Shown here: one piece after another, positions 3,560 through 44,799 of the stretch | Layout of the letters: every line of letters begins with the position of its first letter | Numbering within the stretch: position 1 is the first letter of the stretch | NCBI GenBank assembly: GCA_964386265.1 | Contig: CAYLRB010000004.1 | Span: 1 to 47,396 of the forward strand | Direction of reading: 5' to 3' | Source: an uncultured Candidatus Peribacteria bacterium | GTDB lineage: Bacteria > Patescibacteriota > Gracilibacteria > UBA1369 > UM-FILTER-41-14 | DNA: 47,396 nucleotides | Made by a program: the position numbers and the translations under genes | The notes under the pieces: generated by a model | Seen by the model: only the letters and a program-made list of their open reading frames with translations | The model's database searches: none | What the model was told of the DNA's origin: nothing

Positions 3560-3565
3560 ACTGCT

Positions 3566-19382: not shown

Positions 19383-19407
19383 AGGGTGTTGAATAAAAAA
19401 TATTGAT

Positions 19408-20526: not shown

Positions 20527-20529
20527 ATT

Positions 20530-21564: not shown

Positions 21565-21580
21565 ACTTTATAATGTGCTT

Positions 21581-22717: not shown

Positions 22718-22768
22718 GTAGTTATTTTATGGTTTAATACTTTTAAAATCAATTTAAAGCTTATTTTT

Positions 22769-23704
22769 GTGGAAATTCAAGTTCCAACTAAACTAATTAT
22801 TGTTGGTGAGCATCTGGTTTTGTGTGGATATTCGGCTTTGGCTGTGCCTTTGCCATCGTTTTCGCTTGAATTAAAGGTTGATTTATTGGAACAAGCTAAT
22901 GTGCAGCTAGAAAATTTTGAGATTAGTGTGCCTTTGTTTCCAAATTTAAGTGGTTTAGAAGATTGGCTACCAATGATGAGATCTGATGCAGATTTTGTTA
23001 AAGCTAAGTTTGGGTTGAAAGGTGAAAATTTCAATTACAAAGTTGTTATGAGGATGCCGCCAGGCTCTGGTGGTGGAACATCTGCTGCTTGGTCTGTAGC
23101 TTTGGTTAAGTCTTTGGTAAAGTTTGCGAAGGTAAATTATTCAGAGCACGAGTTACTAAAAATAGTTGCAGATTTGGAAGATAGTCACCATGGTGGAAAA
23201 GCCAGCGGTATTGATCATCTTACAATCTGGCGCGATAGTCCCTCTTTATTATTGAATGGTGAGTTGCAACTTTTGGAATTCGATTTTTTTAGTTATCCTT
23301 TTTGGAATGATAGTCGGTTGATTTTTACGGGTTTGCCTAGGGAAACAACTGCGGAAATGCGTAAAATTGTAAAAGAGAATATTCAAAATGCTCCCGAAGC
23401 GTTGGCTAACTTTAAAGATCAGGCAAATCTTTTACTAGATGCAATAGCGCAAAATAATAAGCCTAAAATCAAGGAGATAATAAATAGTTACGGTATTATT
23501 TTGGAAAATGTTGGAGCAGTAAGTGATCGTGTTAAAGCAGCGGCAGATGAGCTTAGGAATCAAAAACTTGCTGCAAAAGTTTGTGGTGCGGGGGGAGCTA
23601 CTGATGGATCAGGCTTGTTATTGGTTTATGGCGACATCAACAATATAAAATTTGATGAGTGGCTTTTAAAGTATGGTTTTATTGATTTAACAAACTCTAA
23701 GTAA
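22769..23704 (+). CDS. mvk: mevalonate kinase (GHMP kinase)
   Basis: I moved the start to the in-frame GTG at 22769 (MEIQVPTKLIIVGEHLVL, matching the APGK.ILFGEH-type N-terminus). The track ORF from 22640 would overlap hmgR by 78 nt. GHMP motif PPGSGGGTSAAWSVAL; C-terminal KVCGAGGA. Confidence 0.75.
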   Translation: MEIQVPTKLIIVGEHLVLCGYSALAVPLPSFSLELKVDLLEQANVQLENFEISVPLFPNLSGLEDWLPMMRSDADFVKAKFGLKGENFNYKVVMRMPPGSGGGTSAAWSVALVKSLVKFAKVNYSEHELLKIVADLEDSHHGGKASGIDHLTIWRDSPSLLLNGELQLLEFDFFSYPFWNDSRLIFTGLPRETTAEMRKIVKENIQNAPEALANFKDQANLLLDAIAQNNKPKIKEIINSYGIILENVGAVSDRVKAAADELRNQKLAAKVCGAGGATDGSGLLLVYGDINNIKFDEWLLKYGFIDLTNSK

Positions 23705-24710
23705 CATTGCGAGGGCCTTTACCAATTGGACTTGTAATTAATTCTTTAATCGTTGGATCAGTTTTTAGAATTTTCGTTAATTGTGGTTCAAACTGTTTTT
23801 GGCAGATAATGTGAATATTGGGGCCGGCGTCTATTGTGTAAGCGAATTCCAGGTTGTTGCTTAATTTATGCAGTTTTTCGATTAAATCTAGACTTGCAGG
23901 CTTTAAGTAGATTAATGCTGGTAAGCTTGTTAGCATAACACTATGTAGCATAAGCGCTTCTTGCTCGCATATGGTTTTAAATTGGCTGAAGTTGTTGTTA
24001 ATTAATGCTTTACTACAAAGTTCAAGGTTTCGTTTTGTTTGTTCGCAGCGTGCTTTAAAAATTGGGCTAGTAGCTGCCAGTAAATGTCCGTCTAGTGAAC
24101 TGTGATCTTTTTGAGATGAGTCTACGACAGCAATTAGGTCAACGAGTTCTAAATCTGTTTCTACTTCATCAATTTCTAAACTGTTATTTTCGCAATTTAG
24201 TTTAACTATTGATTGTCCTAGGCTGCGTACTGCCGAGTATGAGCCACTCCAACTGACCATTTCTACTAACTTGTCTTTACTGAATGTCTGCCAGTTATGA
24301 CCACAAGCATTAATAACGGAAAGTGTTAGTGCGCAAAATCCAGATGCAGAAGATGCAATGCCAGCACTAGTTGGAAAATTATTAGTGCTTGTAATTTCTA
24401 AATTGCCATTAAAGCCAAGAGAACTTTTGATTTTTTTTACAAGTTCGTAAGCAGCAAGATTGCGAGTAGATGTTTCTGGATCAAGGTATACGGCTTCAGT
24501 ATTTGATGGGGTTAGGATTTTAATTTCGTCTTTTGAGGCTGTGCTTGCGTGAGGTGTTGCCGTTGTTTGGCTGGTGCATGCAGCTAAATTCATAGAAAGG
24601 CTACCTGTAATTGGTAGACTTTGTTCAGTTAAACCCCAATGTTTAACAAAAGCTATATTAGCTTCGGCGATAACGGTTGCTGTTTCTAGTTTGTGCAATT
24701 TTGTGACCAT
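23697..24710 (-). CDS. mvaD: diphosphomevalonate decarboxylase family (could be a phosphomevalonate decarboxylase)
   Basis: ANIAFVKHWG and NFPTSAGIASSASGFCAL signatures of the MVD branch of GHMP kinases. Confidence 0.75.
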   Translation of the reverse strand: MVTKLHKLETATVIAEANIAFVKHWGLTEQSLPITGSLSMNLAACTSQTTATPHASTASKDEIKILTPSNTEAVYLDPETSTRNLAAYELVKKIKSSLGFNGNLEITSTNNFPTSAGIASSASGFCALTLSVINACGHNWQTFSKDKLVEMVSWSGSYSAVRSLGQSIVKLNCENNSLEIDEVETDLELVDLIAVVDSSQKDHSSLDGHLLAATSPIFKARCEQTKRNLELCSKALINNNFSQFKTICEQEALMLHSVMLTSLPALIYLKPASLDLIEKLHKLSNNLEFAYTIDAGPNIHIICQKQFEPQLTKILKTDPTIKELITSPIGKGPRNVT

Positions 24711-27298: not shown

Positions 27299-28396
27299 GT
27301 GGAAATTTCGTTAACACCAACTAATAAAGAATTAGGGTTGTCGCAGTTAACTCATGGAAGACAAGATCAGTTTATTGAGCTGTTCCCTGATGAACCTAAA
27401 TACCGCTGGCAACAAATTGAAGAATCGTTACTTGCCGGCGTGTATGGTGGTTGGGATGAGTTGACTAATTTGCCTAAGTTTTTGAGAGAGGAGTTGAAAC
27501 TTAAAATGCCTTGGTTAAGTATTGAGCCAAAAGTTACTTTACAGAGTAAAAATAGAGATACTTATAAAGCTGCGTTTGCTTGTGAAGCTGGCGAATTTGA
27601 GTCAGTTTTGATGTCGAATGCTCGTGGTGATTGGACGATCTGTGTTTCTTCGCAGATTGGGTGTGGGATGGGATGTTCGTTTTGTGCTACAGGTAAAATG
27701 GGGTTTAAGTATAATCTACATAGTGATCAAATTGTGGATCAGTACCGTTACTGGAATTTTTTTATTAAGCAAAACCCTGAAGTTGGTGGGCGAATTAGCA
27801 ATATTGTTTTTATGGGTATGGGTGAACCGCTTGCGAACTATAAAAATGTAACAAAAGCAATTAGAGACTTGTTAAAACATACTGATTTGGGGCCAACAAA
27901 AATTACGGTTTCGTCGGTTGGTGTTGTTCCCGTATTGAAGAAGATTCTGTCAGATCCAGAATGGCCGCCAGTTAGAATTGCTATTTCACTCCATAGTGCT
28001 GATAAAATTACGCGAGGGGAAATTATTCAAACTTCTTATGAAAACTTTCTGGAAGACCTTAAAGAGTGGTCAATTGCTTATTTGAATACTTTGGGAAATC
28101 GCAGGCATCATATTACTTTTGAGTATGTAATGTTGAATGAAGTAAATGACAGTTTAGATGCAGCAAAAAAACTGGCAAATTTTGTTAAAAATATTGGCAA
28201 TTCAGAAAGTGTGAAAGTTAATTTAATTCCGTACAACTATACAGGAGATGTTTATCGCTGCAGTGAAGAAGAGCGTTTTGTTGCATTTATGAAGGTTTTG
28301 CAAGATGCTGGTGTAAATGTAACTCGTCGCAAAACAATGGGTGACGATATTAATGCTGCTTGTGGACAACTAATTACTTTGAGGCAAGAGGGCTAG
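27299..28396 (+). CDS. rlmN: 23S rRNA/tRNA adenine-C2 methyltransferase, radical SAM (RlmN/Cfr family)
   Basis: CVSSQIGCGMGCSFCATG radical-SAM CxxxCxxC cluster, GMGEPLAN, and a C-terminal INAACGQL Cys. GTG start. Confidence 0.8.
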   Translation: MEISLTPTNKELGLSQLTHGRQDQFIELFPDEPKYRWQQIEESLLAGVYGGWDELTNLPKFLREELKLKMPWLSIEPKVTLQSKNRDTYKAAFACEAGEFESVLMSNARGDWTICVSSQIGCGMGCSFCATGKMGFKYNLHSDQIVDQYRYWNFFIKQNPEVGGRISNIVFMGMGEPLANYKNVTKAIRDLLKHTDLGPTKITVSSVGVVPVLKKILSDPEWPPVRIAISLHSADKITRGEIIQTSYENFLEDLKEWSIAYLNTLGNRRHHITFEYVMLNEVNDSLDAAKKLANFVKNIGNSESVKVNLIPYNYTGDVYRCSEEERFVAFMKVLQDAGVNVTRRKTMGDDINAACGQLITLRQEG

Positions 28397-29321
28397 TTTT
28401 TCGCTTGTTTTGTAAATAATCTGAAATAGCTTTTGGGTTTGAAACCCAGTTTCGACTTTCTTTAAAAGCATCAATTTTACCTTGGCGAGCTAATAAACTT
28501 AAATAATCTTGAGAAAATGGTGTGCTTTTGGCCAAATCTCGCAGCGAAATATAATCATATTCTGTTGATTGATATCCGCCGCATGCCTCTAGGTGTAGGT
28601 CTAGGGATCTTTCAACAGCTTGGGCTACTAATAATTCAAGTTTTTGATAATTTCCATTGTTTGCTAAATTAAGTGCTTCGTAGTATTTAAACCGATCATT
28701 TTTTAGGATAATTGCAGGTGGAAAACCTGCTTGCATTAATATTAGATTCATTAATAGTCGCCCAGTCCGTCCATTGCCATCGAAAAATGGATGAATCCAG
28801 ACGAATTTATGGTGAAAATGAGTCGCTAAGGTTACAGGATTAGCTAAATTCATTTGTTTTTTTGTCCATGTAACTAAATTCTTCATTAATTCTGGCACTT
28901 TTCGAGAGTTGGGTGGTATAAAATTTGCACCGATAATTCTGACTCTGCCGTTTCTGTATCTGCCTTTAAAATCTTCTTCTATTCGGTCTAATACAAGAGT
29001 TTGAATATTTAGGATAATATTTTCGGTTATTTGTGATGATTTTTGAACTAATTTTGATAAGAATTCAATGGCATGTTGATGATTTTGAGCTTCAAAGTGC
29101 TCGCGTAAAGATTTTCCTTTTATTGTAATCCCTTGTTCAATTAGTAACTTGGTTTCTCTTAATGTTAGAGAATTGCCTTCAATGGCATTTGAGTTGTATG
29201 TCCATTCTAGATTTAATTGCTCTGTTAATCGATTCAAAATTACTTTAGACAGCGGTCTATTTTTGTATAGTAGAGCCTTTTTTTCTTTAATTCGCTGCAA
29301 AATGTTTTCAGTCGTGCTCAT
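28374..29321 (-). CDS. Fic (Fido) family protein
   Basis: HPFFDGNGRTGR Fic core motif. There is an upstream SNAIEGN segment of the (S/T)xxxE(G/N) inhibitory-helix type. The 3' end overlaps the convergent rlmN by 23 nt. Confidence 0.8.
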   Translation of the reverse strand: MSTTENILQRIKEKKALLYKNRPLSKVILNRLTEQLNLEWTYNSNAIEGNSLTLRETKLLIEQGITIKGKSLREHFEAQNHQHAIEFLSKLVQKSSQITENIILNIQTLVLDRIEEDFKGRYRNGRVRIIGANFIPPNSRKVPELMKNLVTWTKKQMNLANPVTLATHFHHKFVWIHPFFDGNGRTGRLLMNLILMQAGFPPAIILKNDRFKYYEALNLANNGNYQKLELLVAQAVERSLDLHLEACGGYQSTEYDYISLRDLAKSTPFSQDYLSLLARQGKIDAFKESRNWVSNPKAISDYLQNKRKTSPLASK

Positions 29322-31458: not shown

Positions 31459-32124
31459 TTACCATTTGATGGTTGGCAGATGGTGTTTAGCTAAGTATTC
31501 GTTTGCTTTGCTAAAATGTCCACAGCCAAAAAATCCGTTGTAAGCTGAAAGTGGTGATGGGTGAGCAGCTTTTAATACAAGATGCTTGCTTTCATCAATC
31601 ACTTTGCCTTTTTCTTGTGCATAACGACCCCAAAGTAGAAAGACGACGTTTGTTTTATGTGATGAAATCGTTTCAACAATTGTATCCGTAAACTGTTCCC
31701 ATCCCTTTTTTTGATGTGAGCCTGCTTGGCCAGCTCTAACAGTTAAAGTTGCATTTAAAAGTAAAACACCTTGTTTTGCCCAATGTTCTAAATTGCCAGT
31801 TGAAGGAATGGGCTTTTTAAGATCTGTAGCAATCTCTTTGTAGATGTTTTGAAGTGAAGGTGGGATTGCAATTTTGTCATGAACAGAAAAGCATAAACCA
31901 TTTGCTTGCCCAGGCCCGTGGTACGGGTCTTGCCCAAGGATTACAACTTTTACTTGTTCAAATGGGCAAAGGTCAAGTGCGCGAAAAATCTCTTTACCAG
32001 GTGGATAGATCTTTGTTTTTTTGTACTCATCGCGGATAAATTCTGTAAGTTCACTAAAGTATGGTTTTTCAAATTCTGATTCCAATTTTTTCTGCCATGA
32101 AGGATGAATTTTGACTTGGGTCAT
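31459..32124 (-). CDS. ung: uracil-DNA glycosylase, family 1
   Basis: [22 protein letters not shown] and AAHPSPLSA motifs. The start is placed at ATG 32124 ([11 protein letters not shown]), not at the TTG-initiated track ORF ending at 32178. Confidence 0.85.
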
Positions 32125-32141
32125 GGTGGGAGTTGGAAAGG

Positions 32142-32170
32142 TTGATTGGAGTTTAGTAATTAAGTATATT
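32142..32170 (+). promoter_or_regulatory. candidate promoter of the effector/cas operon
   Basis: TTGATT (32142-32147), 17 nt, TATATT (32165-32170), ~25 nt upstream of the effector start. Such matches are common in AT-rich DNA. Confidence 0.25.
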
Positions 32171-32193
32171 ATGATCAATATAATTTTAGAATA

Positions 32194-35100
32194 TTGTCAA
32201 TGGCTATAAATAACAATTCAAATAGAGTTAAAAAATTTGAAAAAGCTGGTTACAGTATCCATTTTGATCGCTTTCGTGATATGCGATGTGACATATCGGC
32301 AATAAGAACTCACAAGTTTAAATGTAAAATCCCTAGAGGTGCAGAAAATAGCTTGTGCGAAAAATTTGAAGGTGTTGCAGGCGTGGTAGGTTCGAGTGAT
32401 AAGGGGTCTTTACTTTGGTTTCTTGTGCAGCTTTATGGGTTGGGTTTTTTATTTGTTTCAAAAGAAGGGAGTAAGAATGCTCTACTAAACAAGCTATATG
32501 GCAGAGATAGTGATGAGTTGGAAATTTCGTCAGACTACAGAGACCACATTCAAAATAAAGAAGCTTTAGCGGAGTTTCTTACTAAAAGCCCTCGCAATGT
32601 TCTTGAAGCTATAAAAGATGATCTCCTTCCCCAGTCGATAATCAAAGGCCTTGTCACGATTTTTTGTCAGAAGGAAAGCAAAATTGATACAAAGAAATTG
32701 CCGGAAAATTCAGTGTTGAAACGAGCTCATGACGGATTGTTAGATCTCGCAAGAAAGAGGAATCGATTGAGTCAAGGTGATATTCAGGAATTTTTTGGTA
32801 TCAAAATTGATGCTCAAGATACTGGTGGAACAACTTTTGTTATTCAGGAAATTCCTTTAGCAGATCTAAAAAAAAACGCTGTTGGAATTGAAATTTATGA
32901 TGCTTATTTTCGTTGTTTGCTGCCCGCATCACAAAAGACCGGTTATGATATTCAGTCGCTTGCGGGTGTTTCAGAAAATCAAAATGCTCTTTCTAACCTT
33001 TTTGGAAAATCACTAAAGGCTTTTCAAAATAGTTACGATGAGTGCAGACGTTTGTTAAGTTTCGGAAATCCTGACTATTTAAAAAAGCATCCAGAGATAT
33101 TAGATTTTCTTGCAAATGCAGTGCATCGAATTGCTCGTGATGTAAATTCATCTGCTACATCTGACTTCATTGCTGATAATTGGGGAGAATATAGAAATCT
33201 AGTGGGGGGAAGGTTACAGGGCTGGCTTTCTAACTTCCAAAATCGTTTAAAATTGTTTGAAGAAGCTCTTTCAGATGGAGTAAAAGGCGATAAAGTTGAT
33301 TCGAAAAAAGTAGCAAAAACTCATAAAGAAGTTTTTGAAGAAATAAAAAATAGCTGTGATTGGAGAAGAGTTTTTCCCCCAACACAGCGTCTAAATTTTG
33401 AGAAGTTATGTGAGTTGAGAGCTTCTCTTGCTAAGTCTTTGAAAGCGATTAAAGGAGAAATAAAATCAGAAAATAAACAAAAAGATTTCGGCACTTTGCT
33501 TAATGAATATAATGTGTATTTGCAAGGCTTCAGAGAGTTTTTAATGAAGTGGAGTAACGAGGGAATTCCGGAGAATTTTGAAGATGAAGATGGCAAAACG
33601 CATAAAATCAAAATCGAGAAATTGAAAAAGGGCGACGCCCAAATTCAAGCTGTTCCTGGAGAATTTGAGATATTTATAAATCTAACTGGCGGTGATTCAA
33701 AGAAGAAAAAATCGAAGAAAAACTTTGAGGAACAGAAAGAAGAGAAAAGTGAGAATTTAGATCAGAAGGTAATTGGCTATTGGTCAAGCTCCTTTGTTCC
33801 ATCTGTGCTAGATCGCTATCCGCGTTTTATTGGTCAGGCGCAAAAAGATCCCCAGAAAGAAATTGATAATGCTCGTAAATCTTTATTCATGATGGCTTCA
33901 GAGGCTATTCAATTTGTCAGAGAAATTCGTAAGAACAACGCAAAAGACAAAAAATTTTCTGCCGAAAAATGGCTGAAGGGAAAAAGAGGAAATGGTCACG
34001 GATTATTTCATAAGAATCTTGACACCTTGCGAGGACTGGCTTCGCGATTTGATGAAACTAAAATTGAAAAATCGCATTCATTCAAATTTCTACAAAAATT
34101 TGTCGATCCTCAAAATTCTCTTGATGATGAGCAAAATGGAAAATGGCAGAAGAAAAATTTGTCAGCAGTGAATTTTTTTGTTTCTGGTTATGAGTATCGA
34201 AACAAAAACTTTTTAGCCGCAAAAGAAGTTAGTTTCGATGATTATTTAAAAATTTTTGAAGAGCATTTTAGACTAGATAAAGTATGCTCAGAAGCTGATT
34301 TAAAAAACTGGCTCGGCTTTCAAGGTGACAACATTTCTTGGTTCACAAATGAATTCGGAGAAGTTTTAAAAATTTATCTCTCTTTGCTGCTACGTGATCT
34401 TGATAAAAAAATTGAATTACCAACTTCATTGCAAGATTTTCATGAGCTAAAGAAAACAACTTTGGCTAGTTTGTTGTTTGATGATTCAGGAAAGATGAAG
34501 TCTGGTAATGTGGATGTAGAAACGGTTCGCGGATTTTTTGCCTCAAGTATTGGCTCGGAAATTCGCAGCAAAATTTCTATTCTTTCGCGTAAAAATTACC
34601 TGAAGCGCAATGTCATCCAAATCACCAACGGCGCACAAACTTTATTGCGTTATGTTCCAATTGAGTGGGGGAATTTTGATCATCTTAGCGAGAAGTCTCG
34701 TAAAAAAATCTGTCGCAATTACATCAAACGTAAAACATATAAAACTTATTCCGGTTTTTCAGAAGAAAATTTAGAGATACTGAAAACCGAAGAAATCAAA
34801 GGCTCAACCAGCGCTGAGATTGCAGCAGCAATTTGGAAAAATTTCTCCACTCAAAATAATGATACGCAAAGAAAATTGGCGCAAATTCTTGGTGAAATGC
34901 CGCATCGCTGGGAAGTTGTTTTGAAAACAGAACAGCCAATCAACGGTCTTGATACAATTGAAAGTGGTTTGTTGTTGGAAAAGTCGAACAAAAGAAATGT
35001 CTTTAATTTCTGCTTAAAAAAAACTGGCTATCTTCACTCATTGCCAATCCAAACTTCAGTTTACCAAAAGCAGTTTCTCGATAAATTTTTATGGGGAGAT

Positions 35101-36201
35101 AAGAAAGGGGTGCTCACTGAGAAAATCATGGGAGCTAGCGTCATTATTGAACAGATCATTGATATAAAAACAGGCTTGCTGAAAAGGCCGAAAAATAGTG
35201 AAGAAAATTTTTCACTTTACTGCGCTATCCCATTCCAGTTCGCAAAAGAAGAAGGCGAAAAGAATCGATTCAAAAAAGAAGAAAAACACAGTGGCAAATA
35301 TCGACTCTCAACTAATGACCATGAAAATGTTCTTGGCATTGATCTAGGTGAATATGGTTTTGGTTGGGCGTTGTTTGATCCAGTAACTCAGAAATTTGGA
35401 AAAAAAGGTTTTGTTGAAATTCCTTTGTTACAAAAAATGCGTGATGGTGCCGCAAATTGGAAAGATGCACAAGCTAGCGGAATTTTTTCTCGTCCAACGA
35501 CTTACCTTGCTGACATTCGCGAACAAGCTGCTGGACAAATCCGCAACCAAATTCACCATTTAGCAATTACTCACAAAGCCAAACCTGTTTACGAAGATTC
35601 AGTTGATGGCTTTGAAAGTGGCGGTCAACGCGTTTCTAAGCTCTACAAAACTCTCAAAACATCTGACGTAATTTCTGGTGTTTCGAATTCAGCTGATGAA
35701 GCTGTACGTAGTCATTTTTGGGGAAATAAGTTTGTACAAATTGGCGGTGTTATTGGTGCGGCGAAGACTTCGCAGACTTGTAGAAAATGTGGCAAATGTG
35801 CTACTCATGAAGTTAGAAAACTTGAAGTAGATGAGGTTGAGATTGTGAACAAAGTGATAATAGGTTCTGGCGTTTATTGTGACTTTGAGAATGGAAAATT
35901 TTCTAAGAAGGAAGTAGAAGCCGCCGTGAAAAAAGCTCAACGTTTTGAGTCTGAAGAAGAAAAAAAAGCTCGCGAATCAGGAAAAAAATTTCGTGGAACT
36001 GTGGAGCAATTTGAGTGTCAGATGGTTGATTGTTATAATGTTACTGACGCTGATGCACAAGCTGCGCAAAACATTGCTCTGAAGTTTTACCTGAAGTCTG
36101 CTGTGACCGCGGAGGAGAAAGAATTATTTCAAACTGAGGATGGGAATTTTTCTACTTTGAGATATTTTCTAGCAAAGTCTAAGGATTTTTTAACTGAATA
36201 A
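32194..36201 (+). CDS. cas12d: type V CRISPR single effector, Cas12d (CasY)-like RuvC nuclease
   Basis: 1335 aa (TTG 32194; ATG alternative at 32200), first gene of the cas4-cas1-cas2-array operon. RuvC-I is [12 protein letters not shown] (D1050, nt 35341). RuvC-II is KPVYEDSVD (E1134, nt 35593). RuvC-III is [16 protein letters not shown] (D1285/D1287, nt 36046-36054). A Cys4 zinc ribbon (CRKC at C1196/C1199; CQMVDC at C1275/C1280) is inserted between RuvC-II and RuvC-III. No HNH domain. Several segments resemble CasY.1 as I recall it. Subtype assignment within the Cas12c/Cas12d clade is an inference. Confidence 0.85.
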
Positions 36202-36207
36202 TTTATT

Positions 36208-36771
36208 ATGCTTCCATTGTCATATGTAGCGGAGTATACATATTGTCAGCGTAGTGCTTTCTACCTATTGGTTGATACTAACTCCGTATACCGTAATGAA
36301 AATGAATACATTCAGGAGGGTAGACTTGTCCACCAGAAAATTGATATAGGCTATGCATATGCAAAAGCTGAGAGAAGGGTTGAGTCATCTTTTTTTGTAT
36401 TTTCTAAAGCATTAAATATTCTTGGGAAAATAGATTTAGTTGAATTTTTTGAAGATAAAATCGTACCAATTGAAGTAAAAAGGGGAATAAGGAGAAATAA
36501 TGAAATGCACACTGTGCAATTGATATTAGCTGCATTGTGCTTACAAGAAATGTTTCCTGCTCATCGCATTGAAAAAGGGGCAATTTTTTTTACTGGAGAT
36601 AGAAAAAGAATAGAAATTGAATTCGATGACCATTTGATACAAAAAACATTAAATTTAGTTTATGAATTGAACAAAAAAACTGATAAAATTTTAGATCCTA
36701 GAAATTTTAAGATGCAGAAAGGGAAAATCTGTCAAGGATGTTGTTTTTATGACTTGTGTCATGTGGAATAG
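36208..36771 (+). CDS. cas4: Cas4 (RecB-like nuclease with Fe-S Cys cluster)
   Basis: N-terminal YTYCQRSAFY Cys, GKIDLVE (motif II Asp), IEVKRG (ExK), QLILAAL (Q motif), C-terminal CQGCCFYDLC (C-x2-C-x5-C). Lies 6 nt after the effector stop. Confidence 0.85.
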   Translation: MLPLSYVAEYTYCQRSAFYLLVDTNSVYRNENEYIQEGRLVHQKIDIGYAYAKAERRVESSFFVFSKALNILGKIDLVEFFEDKIVPIEVKRGIRRNNEMHTVQLILAALCLQEMFPAHRIEKGAIFFTGDRKRIEIEFDDHLIQKTLNLVYELNKKTDKILDPRNFKMQKGKICQGCCFYDLCHVE

Positions 36772-36809
36772 TATTGTATATTTGTATCTTTGTGTTTCTA
36801 ATCTATAAA

Positions 36810-37799
36810 ATGACTTATTTAGTCGAGAGGCCAACATTGTTTGTTGTTGCAAGAAAAAATGATGTCATTGAGAAATATGGTGAAAATATTAGAATTCGCA
36901 ATTCAAATACAGCTGAACTTAGGAAGAAAGTACCAGCAATACATGTCAGAGATATTGTTGTTTGTGGTGATATAAATATTGATTCGACTGTGATTGTGCT
37001 TGCCGAAAAATACTCTATTCCAATTCACTTTTTAAGTAATGGCGGAAAATTCAGGGCATCAATCTACTTTGATTTTTCGAAAAATGTTTTTTTGAGATCA
37101 AAACAATTTGAAATGGCGAATAATATTAAAACAAAAGTAGATTTAGCTATTAACTTTGTTCAAGCCAAAATTTATAATCAAAATATCGCTTTGAGAAAAA
37201 TTAGAGCAAAAGGAAGGCTAAAGCCTAATTTGAATAAGATCATTGATTTAAATGTGTTAAGAGGTGTTGAAGGTGCATCTGCACAAAAGTATTTTTCAAT
37301 TTGGAAAATCGAAAGTGTAATTAAAAACAAAAATTTTAAATTCCAAGGTCGCTTTAAACGACCCGCTACGGATGAAGTAAATGCACTACTATCATTTTGT
37401 TTTTCACTATTGCATAGTGAGATACATACACAACTTATGATTGCTGGCTTGGATCCCTTTGTTGGTTTTTTGCACGAGCAATCATTTGGTCACTCTGCAT
37501 TAGCTAGCGACTTTTTAGAGACTTTTAGAGGTCCGGTTGAACACTTTGTTTGGAAGACTTTGAATCGAAAAGAATTTGATAAATCAGAGGATTTTGAGCG
37601 AGATGTAAGAAATGGTACAGTGCAGCTCTCAACAAAAGGGTTTAAGAAGTTTTTTCCTAAATGGACTAAATTTTTAAGAACTGACGAATTAAACCTTGGT
37701 TATAATTTAACTAGATTAATTGAAATTGATATTAGAAGTTTTGTCCATTTTTTAATGGGTGACAAAGAAGAACATACTCCATTTAAATGGCAAATATGA
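36810..37799 (+). CDS. cas1: Cas1 integrase
   Basis: The start is placed at ATG 36810 (MTYLVERPTLFVV); the GTG-initiated extension from 36756 overlaps cas4. LRGVEGASAQKYF (catalytic Glu region), NALLSFCFSLLHSE, GLDPFVGFLHEQSFGHSALASDFLETFR (His and acidic residues of the Cas1 active site). Confidence 0.85.
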   Translation: MTYLVERPTLFVVARKNDVIEKYGENIRIRNSNTAELRKKVPAIHVRDIVVCGDINIDSTVIVLAEKYSIPIHFLSNGGKFRASIYFDFSKNVFLRSKQFEMANNIKTKVDLAINFVQAKIYNQNIALRKIRAKGRLKPNLNKIIDLNVLRGVEGASAQKYFSIWKIESVIKNKNFKFQGRFKRPATDEVNALLSFCFSLLHSEIHTQLMIAGLDPFVGFLHEQSFGHSALASDFLETFRGPVEHFVWKTLNRKEFDKSEDFERDVRNGTVQLSTKGFKKFFPKWTKFLRTDELNLGYNLTRLIEIDIRSFVHFLMGDKEEHTPFKWQI

Positions 37800-38089
37800 G
37801 GGAGAGATTTTTTGTGATATACGATTTTGTTAGTGATAGTAGACGCGCAAAATTTGCGAAAATTTTAGAGAAATATGGTATAAGAATTCAGTATTCGGTA
37901 TTTGAATTCTCTTTAACTAAAGCTAGAAAAACAGAGCTGTTTGCAAAGATGAAACAAAATGATTTTTTGCGTAATAATAGACAAGAGTCAATAATGATAT
38001 TGCCAATTTCAAATGAATTTTTACGAAAAATCGAGAGATATGGTGATACAACTGATATATTTGATCAAGCTGGTATATTCTTAGTTTGA
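37787..38089 (+). CDS. cas2: Cas2
   Basis: FVIYDFVSDSRRAKFAKILEKYGIRIQYSVFEFSL is the classic Cas2 N-terminal beta-alpha-beta with catalytic Asp. The likely real start is ATG 37796, forming an ATGA overlap with the cas1 stop. Confidence 0.85.
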   Translation: MANMRERFFVIYDFVSDSRRAKFAKILEKYGIRIQYSVFEFSLTKARKTELFAKMKQNDFLRNNRQESIMILPISNEFLRKIERYGDTTDIFDQAGIFLV

Positions 38090-38423
38090 CTTTTTTACTA
38101 TTGTTTTATATCTTGTTTATGGTTCTTTAAATTTTGTTTCAACCACCTTTTAGATTTATTTAAAGGGGAAATGACACATTATTGAAGGATTGGCTTAGAT
38201 TCTAAACTGCCAATTATTTGGTTATTGATGCAAATGATTGGTTGTTTGGAATTAAAAGCGCCTATTCTAAGGATTTATCTTTATTTAAAGGTAATATACA
38301 GCTCTTTACGCGGAACAGAGGTTTGCATGATGTATTTGTTTGTCATATGGTAATGCTTGAAAATGTTTACATCAGACTGAATAAGACAAACCTTTTATTG
38401 ATCTTTTACAAGCTGTTTATGGA
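38090..38423 (+). other. CRISPR leader / non-coding region between cas2 and repeat 1
   Basis: 334 nt, AT-rich, with no credible ORF (the 75-aa track ORF runs into repeat 1). Contains promoter-like TTGCAT-17 nt-TATGGT (38323-38351) about 70 nt upstream of repeat 1. Confidence 0.6.
38189..38241 (+). ncRNA. candidate anti-repeat (tracrRNA/scoutRNA-like) element
   Basis: 38189-38199 ATTGGCTTAGA is the exact reverse complement of repeat nt 2-12. 38222-38230 TTATTGATG is the exact reverse complement of repeat nt 14-22. The two blocks lie in two alternative hairpins (38189-38214; 38210-38241). Transcript ends and strand are unknown. Confidence 0.3.
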
Positions 38424-39374
38424 GTCTAAGCCAATTCATCAATAAGCAAGTCATAGAAACCTATAAATGTACAAGGTGGATGGGCTATCATTGGTCTAAG
38501 CCAATTCATCAATAAGCAAGTCATAGAAACTGCCGTAGTAATACCCTTTTTCCCTTAACATCGTCTAAGCCAATTCATCAATAAGCAAGTCATAGAAACC
38601 TTTACTTTAATTCCAACAACTACTTAACATGGGTCTAAGCCAATTCATCAATAAGCAAGTCATAGAAACATGCGGCTTCGCTTTTTTGACGCAAAAGTTC
38701 CTCAGTCTAAGCCAATTCATCAATAAGCAAGTCATAGAAACATTGTTGAGACAAAGACCTTAATTCACCTACGGCAGTCTAAGCCAATTCATCAATAAGC
38801 AAGTCATAGAAACTACAATTATTATATAACTAAGCTCAGAAAGCTTGTCTAAGCCAATTCATCAATAAGCAAGTCATAGAAACATTAGCTGAAATACTAT
38901 TAGGTTTAATCACAAATGTCTAAGCCAATTCATCAATAAGCAAGTCATAGAAACATTAGCTTCTTCACGGTTGAGGACATGGTTTTTGTCTAAGCCAATT
39001 CATCAATAAGCAAGTCATAGAAACGTATGATAGGGTTACATTCATCATCTAACCCCACAGTCTAAGCCAATTCATCAATAAGCAAGTCATAGAAACTTAA
39101 AATACCGTCAGACGTTGAAACGCCTGGTCTAAGCCAATTCATCAATAAGCAAGTCATAGAAACTGGTCCTCTAACTGCTTAACGATCCGCTGAAAGTCTA
39201 AGCCAATTCATCAATAAGCAAGTCATAGAAACATTGAAGACGCGGAGGCCCTACTTCTCGATATAGTCTAAGCCAATTCATCAATAAGCAAGTCATAGAA
39301 ACCAGGAAGAGAAAGCTCTTTGTATCAAGCGGCCTTGGTCTAAGCCAATTCATCAATAAGCAAGTCATAGAAAC
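38424..39374 (+). CRISPR. CRISPR array, 14 identical 37-nt repeats and 13 spacers (30-35 nt)
   Basis: Repeat is GTCTAAGCCAATTCATCAATAAGCAAGTCATAGAAAC. Repeat starts are 38424, 38494, 38563, 38633, 38705, 38777, 38847, 38918, 38988, 39060, 39127, 39196, 39266 and 39338. Spacers 1-7: ctataaatgtacaaggtggatgggctatcattg; tgccgtagtaataccctttttcccttaacatc; ctttactttaattccaacaactacttaacatgg; atgcggcttcgcttttttgacgcaaaagttcctca; attgttgagacaaagaccttaattcacctacggca; tacaattattatataactaagctcagaaagctt; attagctgaaatactattaggtttaatcacaaat. Spacers 8-13: attagcttcttcacggttgaggacatggttttt; gtatgatagggttacattcatcatctaaccccaca; ttaaaataccgtcagacgttgaaacgcctg; tggtcctctaactgcttaacgatccgctgaaa; attgaagacgcggaggccctacttctcgatata; caggaagagaaagctctttgtatcaagcggccttg. 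The strand is tentative: co-oriented with the cas genes and the repeat ends in GAAAC. Confidence 0.97.
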
Positions 39375-39465: not shown

Positions 39466-39540
39466 TGGCTCCCCGAGTTGGGCTCGAACCAACGACCTAC
39501 CGGTTAACAGCCGGTTGCTCTACCACTGAGCTATCGGGGA
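39466..39540 (-). tRNA. tRNA-Asn (anticodon GTT), CCA encoded
   Basis: Minus strand reads TCCCCGA-TA-GCTC-AGTGGTA-GAGC-A-ACCGG-CTGTTAA-CCGGT-AGGTC-GTTGG-TTCGAGC-CCAAC-TCGGGGA-G-CCA. This is a canonical cloverleaf with 7/4/5/5-bp stems, a TTCGAGC T-loop and anticodon loop CT-GTT-AA. Confidence 0.93.
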
Positions 39541-40748
39541 ATGTGGAGTTTGAATTTTAGTACTTCTCTTCCGACAATTTGTTGTGGACGAATGTATACT
39601 AAGCTTTGTTCATTCAAAGCCGCCTTAATATAGCCAAGTGCTTCAATCTTTTCAACAGTATTTTTCAAAAAATATAATTTACCTTCCATATATGATTCTG
39701 GGCTTGTTCTAAAGACAGGTAAACTAATTACGATTTCAGTGTTTTCGTTGATAACGCTTTTTAGGCTTTTAAAAAAGGAAACGTAAATTTTATCAATGTT
39801 GTCAAAGTTTTCTATGGAGCCGGGATGAGTGGGGTTGATAGCATGGTGCATAAGTTTGCCAAGATAGCCTTCGCTGACAATAGCATCTACTTTTTTCCAA
39901 TCGACTTGCGCATCTGCAATTTTTATAGCGTCTTGTTCAAAGATTTGGCAACTAAGTTCTGGTTTTAGTTGTTGTTTGAACTTTTGTTTTAGCCAGTCTA
40001 AGTTTAGCTGACTATCTTCAATTGCTTTTGGGTCAAGGTCGCTGCCGATTACGTTTAAGTTCATTAGCAGGCCTTCCATTAGAACTGTACCGATTCCACA
40101 GAACGGATCGTATACTGTACTGCCATCTTTTACCTGAGCTAGATTTAGTAAAGTTTGCGCTAATTTTGGCGGAAACATACCGCGTTGCATGTCACGAGCT
40201 GGTTTTTGATAGTCCCGAAAGCTGTAACTGTTTAAGTCTTGGAGACCAACAGTTTTAGTGATGAAAATTTTGTCTAATATTTTAATAACTTGAATAAGGT
40301 CGATTTTATTTTGTTTCCAGCCTTGATCGTATAGATAGGCAGTGTGGCAGTTTTTGTTGTTTTTGTTTAAAAACCTTACTTTGCCTTCGCCTTCTTGTTC
40401 TTTGGCAATTTTTTTCAACTTAAGCAAAACTTGCTGTTTTACCTTGGGGTGCGCCATGTGTTCAGGCAAATAGTTGACGGCGTATTGTCTTTTGATTGTG
40501 GTTTTTTGAATTTTTTGTACTATTGTGTCTGGGTTTCTGCAGTCTTGAAAATTTGTAATCGTATCAATGATTTTAGAAATTGCAGGTATGCTACCAATTT
40601 TATCGAGCCAAGTTTGATTTAATTCAACTTCTGTCTCGAGCATGACCCATTCTTCATAATGATCAATAATCTTGCAGTCTGGCAAAGTTGCTTGCAGTTC
40701 GGCAATTGCAAATTCAGGTTGGCGACCACATTGAACTAAATATTGCAT
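39531..40748 (-). CDS. SAM-dependent RNA methyltransferase (UPF0020/Trm11-RlmL-like, putative guanine-N2)
   Basis: VYDPFCGIGTVLMEG (motif I, DPFCGSGT type) followed by VIGSDLD (motif II acidic residue). The N-terminal ~190 aa may be an RNA-binding module. The last 10 nt, including the stop, overlap the 5' end of tRNA-Asn. Confidence 0.55.
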   Translation of the reverse strand: MQYLVQCGRQPEFAIAELQATLPDCKIIDHYEEWVMLETEVELNQTWLDKIGSIPAISKIIDTITNFQDCRNPDTIVQKIQKTTIKRQYAVNYLPEHMAHPKVKQQVLLKLKKIAKEQEGEGKVRFLNKNNKNCHTAYLYDQGWKQNKIDLIQVIKILDKIFITKTVGLQDLNSYSFRDYQKPARDMQRGMFPPKLAQTLLNLAQVKDGSTVYDPFCGIGTVLMEGLLMNLNVIGSDLDPKAIEDSQLNLDWLKQKFKQQLKPELSCQIFEQDAIKIADAQVDWKKVDAIVSEGYLGKLMHHAINPTHPGSIENFDNIDKIYVSFFKSLKSVINENTEIVISLPVFRTSPESYMEGKLYFLKNTVEKIEALGYIKAALNEQSLVYIRPQQIVGREVLKFKLHIPR

Positions 40749-41370: not shown

Positions 41371-44300
41371 TTATGAGCAGCCTTCAGAGTTGCCGCAATT
41401 TAAACACTTGTAGCATGAGCCGTTGCGAACTGTGATGTGACCACATGTGCTACATGCTGGTGCATCACCCATCATACTTTTTAAGTGTTGGTCGTTTAGG
41501 TCTTCTTGTTTGTTTGAGGCGTTTTGCTCAACTGTAATTGCTTGTTTTATCTTATCTAATTGTTCATCCCCTCCCCCTGTGCCCCCACCAGTATTCACCG
41601 GCGAGGTGCCAGGGGTTTTTGTATTTGTATTTGTTTTTAACAAGGAATGATACTTAGCGATCGTCTCCACTCTCGTGATCTCCGGTTTAACATGAACAAA
41701 ATCTGTTCTGTTTAGGTATTCCATACCTAGTACTCGGAAAATAAAATCTAATATTGAAGTTGCTGATTTTACATTGTCATGGTTTGTCATACCGGATGGT
41801 TCAAACCGTGTGAATGTGAATTTTTCTACATAAGTGTCTAGTGGTACGCCGTATTGCAAGCCAATTGAAATGGCAACTGCAAGTGAGTTTAGTAAGCTTC
41901 TGTAAGATGCGCCTTCTTTGAACATGTCGATAAATACTTCGCCAAGGCTGCCGTCTTCGTACTCTCCTGTTCGTACATGTATTTTTTGGCCACCAATGTT
42001 CGATTCGATAGTTAAACCTTCACGTTTTGTAGGTAGTTTGCGTTTCAAACTGCGTTGACGAGCCTCTTTTAATTGATTTAGCTCGGCAATTGCTGTGTCT
42101 AGTTTTGTTTGTAGTTCTGTTACAAGTTCGCTTACTTCAGCTCCTGAGGCACTACTTGTGTTTAATGGTTGAGATAGTTTACTTCCGTCACGGTATAAGG
42201 CGTTTGCTTTGATCCCTAGTTTCCAGCTTTCTAAATATGCACCTTTAATTTCTTCTACTGTTGCTTCATTTGGCATGTTGATTGTTTTGCTGATTGCTCC
42301 ACTTATAAACGGTTGAGCAGCTGCCATCATGTGGATATGTCCGTTGTGGTGAATAAAGCGTTTTCCAATTGATCCACACTTGTTTGCGCAGTCAAATACT
42401 GGTAGGTGTTCGTCTTTCAAATGTGGTGCTCCTTCAACCGTCATACTTCCGCAGATAATATGGTTTGCTGTTGCGATTTGTTCTTCTGTAAATCCAAGTG
42501 CTTTAAGTAGATTGAATCCAGGTTGTGAAGTTTTGTCTTTATCAAAACCTAGTTTAGTCATATTTTCTTCTCCTAGTACCCAAGCTTGGAATGCATCACC
42601 TAGGCTGAATGATTTAACAAGCTGCTGTTCGATTATTGCAAACATCTCTTCGGTAAATCCTTTTGGAGCTAGGCTTGCTCGGTTAATATCTGACTTGTTC
42701 GTTAGTGACAATGTACCTAGTACGTAGTCTAGTATTTCTTTGCGTTCTGTTTGATTGTAGCCAAGATTTTTGAGAGCTGGTTCTACAGATTGATTGATGA
42801 TTTTGAAATAGCCACCACCTGCTAATTTTTTGAATTTAACTAGAGCGAAGTCAGGTTCAATGCCTGTCGTATCGCAATCCATAAGGAGGCCGATAGTTCC
42901 TGTTGGTGCAATTACTGTTGTTTGCGCATTGCGATAACCATGTTCTTCCCCTTGTGTAAGTGCAGCATCCCAACTTTGTTGAGCAGCTTTTAGTAGATAT
43001 TCTGGGCAGTGTTGAGGATTGATTGCTACTGGTTTAATTCTTAGGTTTTCGTATTCTTCGGCAGGAGCGTTGTATGCAGCTCGACGGTGGTTGCGCATTA
43101 CTTTTAGCATTGGTTCTCGATTTTCTTCGTATCCTGGGAATGGGCCTAGTGCTTCAGATAGCTCAGCGCTAGTTGCGTATGAGTCACCTGTTAATATTGC
43201 TGTTATTGCTCCGGCAATAGCTCGGCCTTCTTTTGAGTCATAAGGGATTCCTGCGATCATTAATACTGTACCAAGATTGGCATAGCCCAAGCCAAGTGTA
43301 CGGAATTTATATGATAATTCTGCAATTTCTTTACTTGGGAATTGTGCCATTAATACACTAATTTCTAATACGATTGTCCAAAGACGAATTGCATGTTTCA
43401 TGGCAGGCACATCGAATGTACAATTTTCTTGATCAAAGAAATGTATAAGATTTAGCGAAGCTAAATTACAAGCTGTGTTGTCCAAGAACATATATTCGCT
43501 GCATGGATTACTTGCGTTGATGCGGCCTGAGTTTGGACAGGTATGCCATTCATTGATTGTACCGTCGTATTGAACACCAGGGTCTGCACATGCCCAAGCT
43601 GCTTCGGCAATTTGATTCCAGAGGTCACGCGCTTTAACTGTTTTACAAACATGTCCATTAGTTCGCCATTTTAGTTGCCAATCGCTGTCTTGTTCGAGTG
43701 CGTCCATAAATTCGTGTGGAACGCGAACTGAATTGTTTGAGTTTTGACCTGCGACTGTGCGATAGGCTTCCCCATTAAAGTCGCTATCATAACCGGCTGC
43801 AATAAGTGCTGCTACTTTTTTCTCTTCATTTTTTTTCCAGTTAATAAACTCTTCAATATCTGGATGATCTAAGTCTAAACAAACCATTTTCGCTGCTCTT
43901 CTTGTTGTTCCTCCTGATTTAATTGCGCCTGCTGCGCTGTCGCCAATTTTTAAGAATGACATTAAACCAGATGAGTTGCCGCCGCCACTTAGTGGTTCGC
44001 CTTCGCCGCGTAAGTTAGAAAAATTTGTCCCTGTTCCTGACCCATATTTGAATAGGCGAGCTTCCCTAACCCAAAGATCCATTAGGCCACCTTCGTTAAC
44101 TAGATCGTCTTTAACTGCTTGGATAAAGCAAGCATGTGGTTGTGGATGGCTATATGAGTCGTCACTTTCTACAAGTACGCCAGTGTCTGGATCAACATAG
44201 TAATGACCTTGTGATGGGCCGTTGATGTCATATTTCCAGTGAAGACCGGTGTTGAACCACTGTGGAGAGTTTGGTGCAGCCATTTGTTTGACAAGCATGT

Positions 44301-44799
44301 ACTCAAGTTCTGCTTGGAAGCTGTCAGCATCATCTTTGCTTGCGAAATAGTTGTATTTTTCACCCCAGAATCTCCAGCAACCAGCTAGGCGCTCGATTAC
44401 TTGTTTAGCACTTTTTTCTGCTCCTTTGATAATGTTTCCTTCGCTATCTTTCATGACATTCCCGTCTTTGTCGTATTGTGGTACGCCTGCTTTTCGGAAA
44501 TATTTTGAGATCATGATGTCTGAAGCAACTTGTGACCATGCTTTAGGTATTTCACAATCTGTCATCTCAAATACGGTTTCACCACCTGTGCTGCTGATTT
44601 TTGCACTGCGTAGTTCGTATTCAATGTTCTCTAGTGGTTTTTCGCCTGTGGAGGTGAAATAGCGGTCGATTTTTAGACCAATGCCAGTTGCATTTTTGTT
44701 TGTTTCGAACCTAGGTAGTTTGCCACCTAAACCACGATCGCCACTAATTTTGGCTAATGGATTCATATTTTTAAAGTTGTTAAGATTCTCCTGTCCCAA
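41371..44799 (-). CDS. nrdJ: ribonucleoside-triphosphate/diphosphate reductase, class II (adenosylcobalamin-dependent)
   Basis: 1142 aa. NPCSEY (active-site Cys loop), TVIAPTGTIG, GISKTINMP and a C-terminal Cys-rich zinc ribbon CSTCGH..CYKCLNCG typical of long NrdJ proteins. The track start is TTG 44799; ATG at 44766 (MNPLAKISG) is an alternative. Confidence 0.85.
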   Translation of the reverse strand: MGQENLNNFKNMNPLAKISGDRGLGGKLPRFETNKNATGIGLKIDRYFTSTGEKPLENIEYELRSAKISSTGGETVFEMTDCEIPKAWSQVASDIMISKYFRKAGVPQYDKDGNVMKDSEGNIIKGAEKSAKQVIERLAGCWRFWGEKYNYFASKDDADSFQAELEYMLVKQMAAPNSPQWFNTGLHWKYDINGPSQGHYYVDPDTGVLVESDDSYSHPQPHACFIQAVKDDLVNEGGLMDLWVREARLFKYGSGTGTNFSNLRGEGEPLSGGGNSSGLMSFLKIGDSAAGAIKSGGTTRRAAKMVCLDLDHPDIEEFINWKKNEEKKVAALIAAGYDSDFNGEAYRTVAGQNSNNSVRVPHEFMDALEQDSDWQLKWRTNGHVCKTVKARDLWNQIAEAAWACADPGVQYDGTINEWHTCPNSGRINASNPCSEYMFLDNTACNLASLNLIHFFDQENCTFDVPAMKHAIRLWTIVLEISVLMAQFPSKEIAELSYKFRTLGLGYANLGTVLMIAGIPYDSKEGRAIAGAITAILTGDSYATSAELSEALGPFPGYEENREPMLKVMRNHRRAAYNAPAEEYENLRIKPVAINPQHCPEYLLKAAQQSWDAALTQGEEHGYRNAQTTVIAPTGTIGLLMDCDTTGIEPDFALVKFKKLAGGGYFKIINQSVEPALKNLGYNQTERKEILDYVLGTLSLTNKSDINRASLAPKGFTEEMFAIIEQQLVKSFSLGDAFQAWVLGEENMTKLGFDKDKTSQPGFNLLKALGFTEEQIATANHIICGSMTVEGAPHLKDEHLPVFDCANKCGSIGKRFIHHNGHIHMMAAAQPFISGAISKTINMPNEATVEEIKGAYLESWKLGIKANALYRDGSKLSQPLNTSSASGAEVSELVTELQTKLDTAIAELNQLKEARQRSLKRKLPTKREGLTIESNIGGQKIHVRTGEYEDGSLGEVFIDMFKEGASYRSLLNSLAVAISIGLQYGVPLDTYVEKFTFTRFEPSGMTNHDNVKSATSILDFIFRVLGMEYLNRTDFVHVKPEITRVETIAKYHSLLKTNTNTKTPGTSPVNTGGGTGGGDEQLDKIKQAITVEQNASNKQEDLNDQHLKSMMGDAPACSTCGHITVRNGSCYKCLNCGNSEGCS

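Follow-up and report, generated by a model that had tools for sequence, protein, structure and literature searches.

A Cas12d-like type V CRISPR-Cas locus with a complete cas4-cas1-cas2 module and a predicted long anti-repeat tracrRNA from uncultured bacteria

The Cas12c and Cas12d systems (subtypes V-C and V-D) are described as minimal, with Cas1 alone for adaptation, spacers shorter than any others known, and a scoutRNA replacing a tracrRNA (trans-activating CRISPR RNA). Here we analyzed a CRISPR-Cas locus at positions 32194 to 39374 of a 47,396-nucleotide (nt) stretch of DNA from an uncultured Candidatus Peribacteria bacterium (contig CAYLRB010000004.1; the whole stretch is referred to as the window), in which a Cas12d-like effector gene is joined to cas4, cas1, and cas2 genes and a CRISPR array. 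Among the described systems, V-C loci have cas1 only and short spacers (PMC10691335), V-D loci combine cas1 alone with short repeats and spacers (PMC10691335; bioRxiv 10.1101/2023.12.12.571249), and the canonical scoutRNA is complementary to only 3-5 nt of the repeat (PMC9522604). We classify the locus in the window as a new variant among type V systems of the Cas12c/Cas12d kind; it may also represent a new subtype. Its sequence makes it quite likely that this type V system is complete, probably active, and equipped with a long anti-repeat tracrRNA, and that it belongs to a distinct and conserved lineage, closest to Cas12d in profile score, of the Cas12c/Cas12d branch.

The layout agrees base for base with a preliminary description of the locus, made from the DNA letters, as one co-oriented block of cas12, cas4, cas1, and cas2 followed by 334 nt and 14 repeats. 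The genes and the array are listed below, with protein lengths in amino acids (aa).

32194..36201, + strand: cas12 effector, open reading frame (ORF) of 1335 aa from TTG at 32194
36208..36771, + strand: cas4, 187 aa, PD-(D/E)XK nuclease with a Cys cluster at the C-terminus
36756..37799, + strand: cas1, ORF from GTG at 36756, likely start at ATG 36810
37787..38089, + strand: cas2, 100 aa from ATG 37787, or 97 aa from ATG 37796
38424..39374, + strand: CRISPR array with 14 identical copies of the 37-nt repeat GTCTAAGCCAATTCATCAATAAGCAAGTCATAGAAAC and 13 spacers of 30-35 nt, all unique

None of the four cas ORFs is interrupted. The cas12-cas4 gap is 6 nt, and 334 nt (38090-38423) separate the cas2 stop from the first repeat; the public gene call starts cas12 at ATG 32200 and gives 1333 aa. 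The cas1 start is likely ATG 36810 because the homologue and Pfam alignments begin there, and with this start the previously noted 38-nt gap between cas4 and cas1 is reproduced. Likewise, the 97-aa cas2 product from ATG 37796, which has the length found in homologues, reproduces the ATGA overlap with the cas1 stop. The three adaptation genes are adjacent, lie in one orientation, and pass curated family cut-offs, as expected from the full cas4-cas1-cas2 module that had been proposed: cas4 by Pfam Cas_Cas4 (3.6e-18) and TIGR00372 (99.4 bits; cut-off 65), cas1 by Pfam Cas_Cas1 (2.5e-66) and the generic model TIGR00287 (193.6 bits; cut-off 71.7), and cas2 by Pfam CRISPR_Cas2 (1.8e-14) and TIGR01573 (51.5 bits; cut-off 24.5). 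The top PADLOC models for cas4 are Cas4c and Cas4d and the nearest subtype models for cas1 are I-D and I-C; by these sequence affinities the module is of type I-C/I-D-like ancestry. Pfam and NCBIfam scans found no HNH or Cascade-type genes, and no other effector gene lies within 32194-39374.

The effector falls under Cas12d by profile, in line with its earlier description as CasY/Cas12d-like. It scores 374.8 bits against the NCBIfam Cas12d model NF033951 (cut-off 250), with protein residues 72-1301 aligned to model positions 72-1179 of 1180, but stays below the cut-off of the Cas12c model NF033950 (79.6 bits; cut-off 250), which it matches in the RuvC region only. For reference, canonical Cas12d members score 776-835 bits on NF033951 (P0034, 776; P0157, 835), and a true Cas12c representative scores 501 bits on NF033950. 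The PADLOC models agree with this assignment (Cas12d, 216 and 203 bits; Cas12c, 162 and 156 bits). The best profile match of the effector is therefore subtype V-D, which includes KbCas12d (CasY.1) and CasY15. The single Pfam match of the protein is a Cas12f-like TNB zinc ribbon. Membership in V-A, V-B, or V-E was rejected, as the effector matches no such profile in NCBIfam or PADLOC. The catalytic and zinc-binding residues, in the numbering of the 1335-aa protein, are the following.

35341-35343, + strand: RuvC-I D1050, aligns with Cas12c2 D928
35593-35595, + strand: RuvC-II E1134, aligns with Cas12c2 E1014
36052-36054, + strand: RuvC-III D1287, aligns with Cas12c2 D1201
C1196/C1199/C1275/C1280: zinc ribbon, four cysteines kept in 119-121 of 123 relatives

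The three acidic residues do not vary among the 123 aligned full-length relatives, and their Cas12c2 counterparts D928, E1014, and D1201 are the catalytic residues according to the structure paper (PMC9522604). The alignment to Cas12c2 thus places the D/E/D triad at the RuvC catalytic positions and disposes of the possibility, raised in the preliminary description, that these residues are misplaced. The canonical relative P0034 carries D827 and E913 like KbCas12d. A single effector with a split RuvC D/E/D site and a zinc ribbon, in a locus without HNH or Cascade genes, upholds the initial classification as class 2 type V.

The closest solved folds to the effector model come from subtype V-C (Cas12c1, 7vyx; Cas12c2, 7v93 and 7v94). 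The AlphaFold2 (AF2) model used covers residues 700-1335 and was built from 58 sequences (pLDDT 85.7); an earlier model (6 sequences, 1134 aa) was poor (pLDDT 58.6) and was set aside. In a Foldseek search of the PDB, which holds no Cas12d structure, the AF2 model matched Cas12c1 (7vyx, E 2.6e-17) and Cas12c2 (7v93, E 2.4e-16), with CasX and Cas12a following at about 1e-10, and Cas12c2 is also the sole PDB sequence match of the effector. The WED/RuvC/TNB half, as modeled, has a Cas12c-type fold. The effector is about 150 aa longer than canonical Cas12d and has clade-specific insertions; in the AF2 model, one of them (P0001 residues 812-885) falls on a helical insert of the WED region. In Cas12c2, a helical WED subdomain touches the tracrRNA (PMC9522604); by analogy, one may speculate that the clade-specific WED insertion holds an enlarged tracrRNA.

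The distribution of relatives sets the effector apart from both characterized families. Word-indexed searches returned 16 clusters (90% identity) of close relatives that are 37-64% identical to the effector, and two further homologue searches of this type added almost nothing. An exhaustive profile search of 1.84 billion representatives yielded 372 relatives, about 20 of which (50%-identity representatives) score above 870 bits; these are followed by the intermediates P0023 (582 bits), P0024 (472), P0025 (462), and P0028 (318), and canonical Cas12d forms a continuum at 262 bits or less. No effector relative was found in viral contigs. In a neighbor-joining tree of 123 full-length proteins (939 columns) that included 98 canonical Cas12d representatives and one Cas12c (P0156), the clade of the window protein is monophyletic in 49 of 50 bootstraps, and in 57 of 60 with P0023, P0024, and P0025 added. 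The window protein shares 24-28% identity with canonical Cas12d and 25% with the Cas12c representative; the clade lies about equally far from canonical Cas12d and the single Cas12c representative. In the source databases, its members are named 'hypothetical protein' or are unnamed. Type V variants are newly reported often; the searchable literature gave no account of a Cas12d-like effector with cas4-cas1-cas2, and large surveys or patents may already list these proteins.

These data bear on an alternative in which the locus is an ordinary V-D system with a short-complementarity scoutRNA and a swapped adaptation module alone altered spacer and repeat length as a side effect. The effector clears the NCBI Cas12d equivalog cut-off, so annotation pipelines would call it Cas12d, and canonical Cas12d is itself so diverse that P0034 and P0157 are only 26% identical. 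However, the clade stands apart from each of the 98 canonical representatives, with profile scores falling from above 870 bits to 262 or less, and the effector carries clade-specific insertions such as that in P0001. Given also the repeat family and the RNA described below, we regard ordinary V-D membership as unlikely.

The preliminary description set the locus against V-D as a cas1-only type with short repeats and spacers, and missed that the locus is one of a family; both points were addressed by comparing locus architectures. Clade loci comprised 12 from species-representative genomes and several more obtained by exact protein look-up. The comparison with the nearest neighbors of the effector places the locus in a conserved family whose layout is common to about twenty uncultured bacteria. 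Wherever enough flanking sequence is available, namely in the window and 12 more loci (among them that of the intermediate P0023), the cas4-cas1-cas2 genes adjoin cas12. An assembly chimera was rejected, as the same gene order occurs on 13 independent contigs from different samples. In a comparison set of 49 canonical Cas12d loci fetched from metagenomes, by contrast, cas1 is found in 27, and neither cas4 nor cas2 is found in any of the 49 by models built from the clade's proteins, which very divergent copies could escape. The picture of V-D given in the preliminary description thus holds for real loci. The Cas1 proteins of the clade and of canonical V-D are 18% identical, and canonical V-D Cas1 scores 72-78 bits on the generic cas1 model, barely at the cut-off, versus 194 for the window Cas1. 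We infer from this identity and these scores that the two adaptation modules differ in origin, which may plausibly explain the different spacer and repeat geometry.

The arrays differ in the same way. The 14 copies of the 37-nt repeat reported for the window were counted as exact copies, far above chance. In nine clade loci with complete arrays, all repeats are 37 nt and spacers are about 29-40 nt (median 31-34), and in the CRISPR RNA (crRNA) sense the clade repeats end in GAAAC (CAAAC in L013). Canonical arrays with a repeat ending in AAAGGC (n=29) have instead repeats of 23-26 nt, which are 25-26 nt long in 27 of the 29, and spacers of about 17-22 nt (median 17-21). This change of repeat family, from 25-26 nt ending in AAAGGC to 37 nt ending in GAAAC, is a further argument against ordinary V-D. 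The arrays of related loci reach 32 repeats, which points to ongoing acquisition. Read on the + strand, the window array has the repeat 5' of each spacer; this orientation is suggested by the co-oriented anti-repeat of the predicted tracrRNA and by the (G/C)AAAC 3' end shared by the clade repeats. A leader was assigned by its position and base composition.

38250..38423, + strand: putative array leader, A+T-rich (31% G+C), between the tracrRNA terminator and the first repeat

A 30-nt direct repeat (73% identity) occurs before the predicted tracrRNA start (38093-38122) and before the first CRISPR repeat (38393-38422). Both copies end in TGTTTATGG, and the direct repeat is not kept in L004; it is probably due to chance, and could be a shared promoter or leader motif. 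Two observations concern the closest homologous locus (Cas12 64% identical). An extra 201-aa gene with only a faint Abi_2 match lies there between cas12 and cas4 (L001 6812-7417 / L002 4915-5520) and is absent from the window, and L002 has a single CRISPR repeat (7735-7771) followed by an ordinary gene, which may be an assembler-collapsed array or a one-repeat array.

The 334-nt region between cas2 and the array had been described as non-coding; its length was reproduced, but it holds a tracrRNA-like gene that had been missed. Alignment of the cas2-to-array regions of nine loci revealed a conserved element directly after cas2, with the following predicted parts in the window.

38086..38114, + strand: predicted sigma-70-type promoter, TTGACT, 17 nt, TATCTT, with the -35 box overlapping the cas2 stop
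38120..38249, + strand: predicted tracrRNA-like gene, about 130 nt
38120-38124 pairing with 38141-38145, + strand: stem of stem-loop SL1
38125-38140, + strand: SL1 loop, CUUUAAAUUUUGUUUC
38136-38140, + strand: 'dock' GUUUC in the SL1 loop, complementary to the repeat 3' end GAAAC
38146-38168, + strand: hairpin 2, variable in sequence in the clade
38171-38175, + strand: AR-1, AUGAC, pairs with repeat nt 27-31
38179-38200, + strand: AR-3 anti-repeat, pairs with repeat nt 1-22
38202-38249, + strand: terminator hairpin, G+C-rich, followed by a U-run

The element occurs in 12 further loci, each time with a promoter-like site and a strong terminator hairpin. The promoter in the window was found by a consensus scan in which the hit alone lies within the shuffled background; a TTGAC(T/A)-17/18-nt-TAnnnT site is also present at the cas2 stop in L004, L005, L006, L008, and L018. 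The element is found elsewhere in some loci: in L013 it lies downstream of cas12, in L015 on the array strand between the array and cas12, and in L016 upstream of cas12; L018 contains it as well.

Because RNAalifold on a MAFFT alignment of nine copies returned no consensus structure, as variable-length segments misalign, the RNA was analyzed by per-sequence folds, an in-register seed of six sequences, and RNAduplex in place of an automatic consensus fold. The window RNA has a fold energy of -43.2 kcal/mol (z = -6.0). When the RNAs were hybridized with the repeats in a 9x9 matrix, each gave -27 to -41 kcal/mol with its own repeat, and the own repeat was the best partner in all nine rows. The predicted pairing can cover 26-31 of the 37 repeat bases, and the maximum of 31 is reached in the window with four segments (repeat nt 1-14, 16-22, 27-31, and 33-37, the last through the loop GUUUC). 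In the six-sequence seed, 93% of the SL1 stem cells are paired and all five pairs show compensatory changes (0 of 500 shuffles), and slid controls reach 0.16 or less compared with 0.93. The tracrRNA:repeat comparison over seven loci gave 17 pairs that are 100% paired, of which 10 are compensatory (0 of 500 shuffles), a pair count biased by the choice of these segments for their complementarity. The dock shows a compensatory change in L013, where the repeat ends in AUCAAAC and the loop reads GUUUGAU. An SL1-only covariance model recovered non-seed copies in L004 (33.5 bits), L005, L015, the window, L006, and L007; SL1 alone is not diagnostic. In Rfam, neither the tracrRNA region nor the repeats matched a family, whether gathering thresholds or E values up to 1 were applied. 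A scan of canonical loci for scoutRNAs by the longest exact anti-repeat was dominated by chance matches and was dropped.

By these criteria, the predicted tracrRNA-like element qualifies as an RNA encoded separately whose anti-repeat covaries with the repeat, and the system is probably dual-RNA-guided. The 5-nt dock complementary to the repeat 3' end, taken by itself, would suit an ordinary V-D scoutRNA; the covarying pairing of 26-31 rather than 3-5 bases would not. The effector profile falls under Cas12d, but the locus departs from three of the features that define V-D, namely Cas1-only adaptation, short repeats and spacers, and a scoutRNA of short complementarity.

Alternatively, the effector could be guided by crRNA alone, with the element between cas2 and the array serving as a leader or regulatory feature such as an antisense-repeat remnant or an autoregulatory cr-like RNA. 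The tracrRNA is a prediction and the specificity of the SL1 model is weak, the position of the element is leader-proximal, a region in which other systems have regulatory repeats, and the isolated minimum-energy fold of the RNA sequesters part of the anti-repeat. This explanation nevertheless appears very improbable, as the element retains its promoter-like site and strong terminator hairpin in the 12 further loci, relocates as a unit in L013, L015, and L016, and pairs and covaries with nearly the whole repeat; moreover, the nearest characterized relatives, Cas12c and Cas12d, both require a second RNA (PMC9522604; PMC11127173).

Two further features of the RNAs were observed. The AUUUUG in the SL1 loop (window 38130-38135) is invariant in the nine aligned core-clade copies and deviates in L016; a candidate partner is a conserved GCAAA in the terminator-hairpin loop, with which it could form a pseudoknot. 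The L016 locus (P0023, intermediate clade), which lies beside ribosomal protein genes and secY, has two SL1-like elements (3560-3690 and 9240-9275), one upstream of cas12 with an anti-repeat and terminator and a second stem-loop just after cas2.

The locus was compared with the closest known systems. Like V-D, it has the RuvC D/E/D residues, a C-terminal zinc ribbon, an effector of similar size class, an occurrence largely in uncultured bacteria of the candidate phyla radiation type, and a second RNA, here predicted, with a short dock to the repeat 3' end. Unlike V-D, the effectors form their own clade at only 24-28% identity, cas4-cas1-cas2 replace cas1 alone, the 37-nt repeats ending in GAAAC and the 30-35-nt spacers contrast with short AAAGGC-ending repeats and short spacers, and the predicted RNA pairs with 26-31 repeat nt rather than the 3-5 nt of a scoutRNA. 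In V-C, three segments of the crRNA repeat are paired with the Cas12c2 tracrRNA, among them -4 to -1 and -11 to -8 (PMC9522604), and the contacts predicted here at repeat -5 to -1 and -11 to -7 resemble this register (R:AR-2 and R:AR-1), with a long third duplex in addition. The anti-repeat segments follow one another in a different order than in the Cas12c2 tracrRNA, however, the third duplex is much longer, and the score on the Cas12c profile stays below its cut-off. With V-B (Cas12b) and V-E (Cas12e/CasX), the locus shares one Cas12, cas4, cas1, cas2, and a tracrRNA, here predicted, with a long anti-repeat, and crRNA:tracrRNA processing of the RNase III type is plausible in all of them; V-B and V-E also have repeats of 36-37 nt and spacers that measure at least about 30 nt, as found here (PMC10691335; PMC11127173). 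In contrast to these types, the effector belongs to neither family, and its structural matches to CasX are far weaker than those to Cas12c. The loop dock recalls the scoutRNA principle of Cas12c/d and the long anti-repeat recalls the classical tracrRNA.

A mechanism may be proposed by analogy with Cas4-containing adaptation modules, Cas12c, Cas12d, and tracrRNA systems; beyond the components and their complementarity, it is inferred. Cas4-Cas1-Cas2 would pick spacers of about 33 nt and insert them at the leader end, unlike canonical V-C and V-D with only a divergent Cas1 and 17-19-nt spacers. The array would be transcribed on the + strand, and every repeat would hybridize with the tracrRNA. 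The pre-crRNA might be cut by host RNase III, as in types II, V-B, and V-E, for which the roughly 20-bp repeat:anti-repeat helix would be a suitable substrate, or by the RuvC site of Cas12, as in Cas12c. The crRNA:tracrRNA duplex would be loaded on Cas12, and the complex would locate DNA flanked by a protospacer-adjacent motif (PAM), which RuvC would cut. The intact genes, the 14 identical repeats, and the all-unique spacers are probably signs of activity.

Besides the bias in the tracrRNA:repeat pair count, several points weigh against the proposed interpretation of a distinct, active, dual-RNA-guided lineage. The placement of the clade is split, as sister to canonical Cas12d (32 of 60 bootstraps) versus nearer Cas12c (22 of 60) in a neighbor-joining tree with one Cas12c; the evidence stays within the two options offered in the preliminary description, an undescribed V-D variant or a separate lineage in the Cas12c/Cas12d clade, with the clade itself robustly monophyletic. 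The U-tract of the window terminator is weak, and the terminator scan made no call there. The dock sequence departs in L005, L007, and L016, and the SL1-only model scores the window copy at 21.4 bits (E 0.04), together with two equal-scoring off-target matches in the window. The tracrRNA ends, the array orientation, and the processing route are predictions. Five exact scans of viral contigs with the leader-proximal spacers of the window, L005, L006, and L011, a BLAST search of all 13 window spacers against phage genomes, and a comparison of 125 clade spacers with every fetched locus at up to 3 mismatches found no protospacers from which a PAM or a target type could be read; canonical V-D has a 5'-TR PAM and cleaves double-stranded DNA in a RuvC-dependent manner. 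Finally, Cas12c2 binds double-stranded DNA in vitro without cutting it (PMC9522604), and cleavage is therefore not assured here.

The last two points would also suit a system that binds DNA without cutting, leading to transcription silencing as reported for Cas12c2, or one that is decaying and non-functional; the in vitro lack of double-stranded DNA cleavage by Cas12c2 occurs despite its intact RuvC site (PMC9522604). Yet the genes are all intact with the D/E/D residues and zinc ribbon conserved, the repeats are perfectly uniform and the spacers diverse, related arrays contain up to 32 repeats, and the complete adaptation module is kept across the clade. We thus consider silencing or decay quite unlikely and favor an active type V system of a distinct lineage within the Cas12c/Cas12d branch.

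The locus is flanked by ordinary chromosomal genes for a uracil-DNA glycosylase (UDG), a glycosyltransferase, a methyltransferase, a glutaredoxin, a class II ribonucleotide reductase, and tRNA-Asn. The divergent UDG-family gene (31459-32178, - strand) begins only 15-21 nt upstream of cas12, leaving little space for a cas12 promoter, and this UDG-cas12 junction recurs on the independent contig L017. On the opposite strand, 92 nt past the last repeat, a tRNA-Asn(GTT) gene (39466-39540, - strand) bounds the locus on its downstream side and might serve as an integration landmark. A Fic/DOC-family gene upstream (28374-29321, - strand) and a DNA/RNA methyltransferase-like gene downstream (39531-40748, - strand) may have defense or toxin functions. 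The class II (B12-dependent) ribonucleotide reductase (41371-44799, - strand; 1142 aa) has a C-terminal TSCPD domain, and the match to its barrel domain is split into two stretches, possibly by an insertion such as an intein. Farther away, the window contains a mevalonate/isoprenoid cluster (17995-24710) with genes for HMG-CoA reductase, thiolase, an ACP-synthase-III-like protein, mevalonate diphosphate decarboxylase, a polyprenyl synthetase, and a phytoene-desaturase-like oxidase, as well as genes for PFOR (1826-3559) and two SLH-domain proteins (9411-10562 and 13553-14746). The related genome bins are labeled inconsistently as Rickettsia, Rhizobium, Alphaproteobacteria, Peribacteria, Gracilibacteria, or Moraniibacteriota; the PFOR, SLH-domain, and mevalonate gene content fits poorly with the 'Rickettsia' and 'Rhizobium' labels.

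A conserved lineage with a full adaptation module, normal spacers, and a long anti-repeat implies that the minimal traits of Cas12c and Cas12d systems are not inherent to this effector family. As a tentative extension, which we hold to be somewhat less probable than its opposite, the clade may represent a type V subtype without a name so far, which would branch between Cas12c and Cas12d and retain an ancestral state of Cas4-Cas1-Cas2, full-length repeats and spacers, and a full tracrRNA with a dock. If so, the minimal V-C and V-D systems would have been reduced from such a state to Cas1-only adaptation, 17-19-nt spacers, and a scoutRNA, and the clade would provide a natural Cas12d-type nuclease using guides of about 30 nt. 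The lineage offers about 20 candidate Cas12d-type nucleases with predicted crRNA and tracrRNA, whose longer guides could give greater specificity than Cas12d guides of 17-19 nt. It is also a natural comparison for the co-evolution of spacer length, repeat length, integrase composition, and guide-RNA architecture, and it bears on the origin of the scoutRNA from a tracrRNA, or the reverse.

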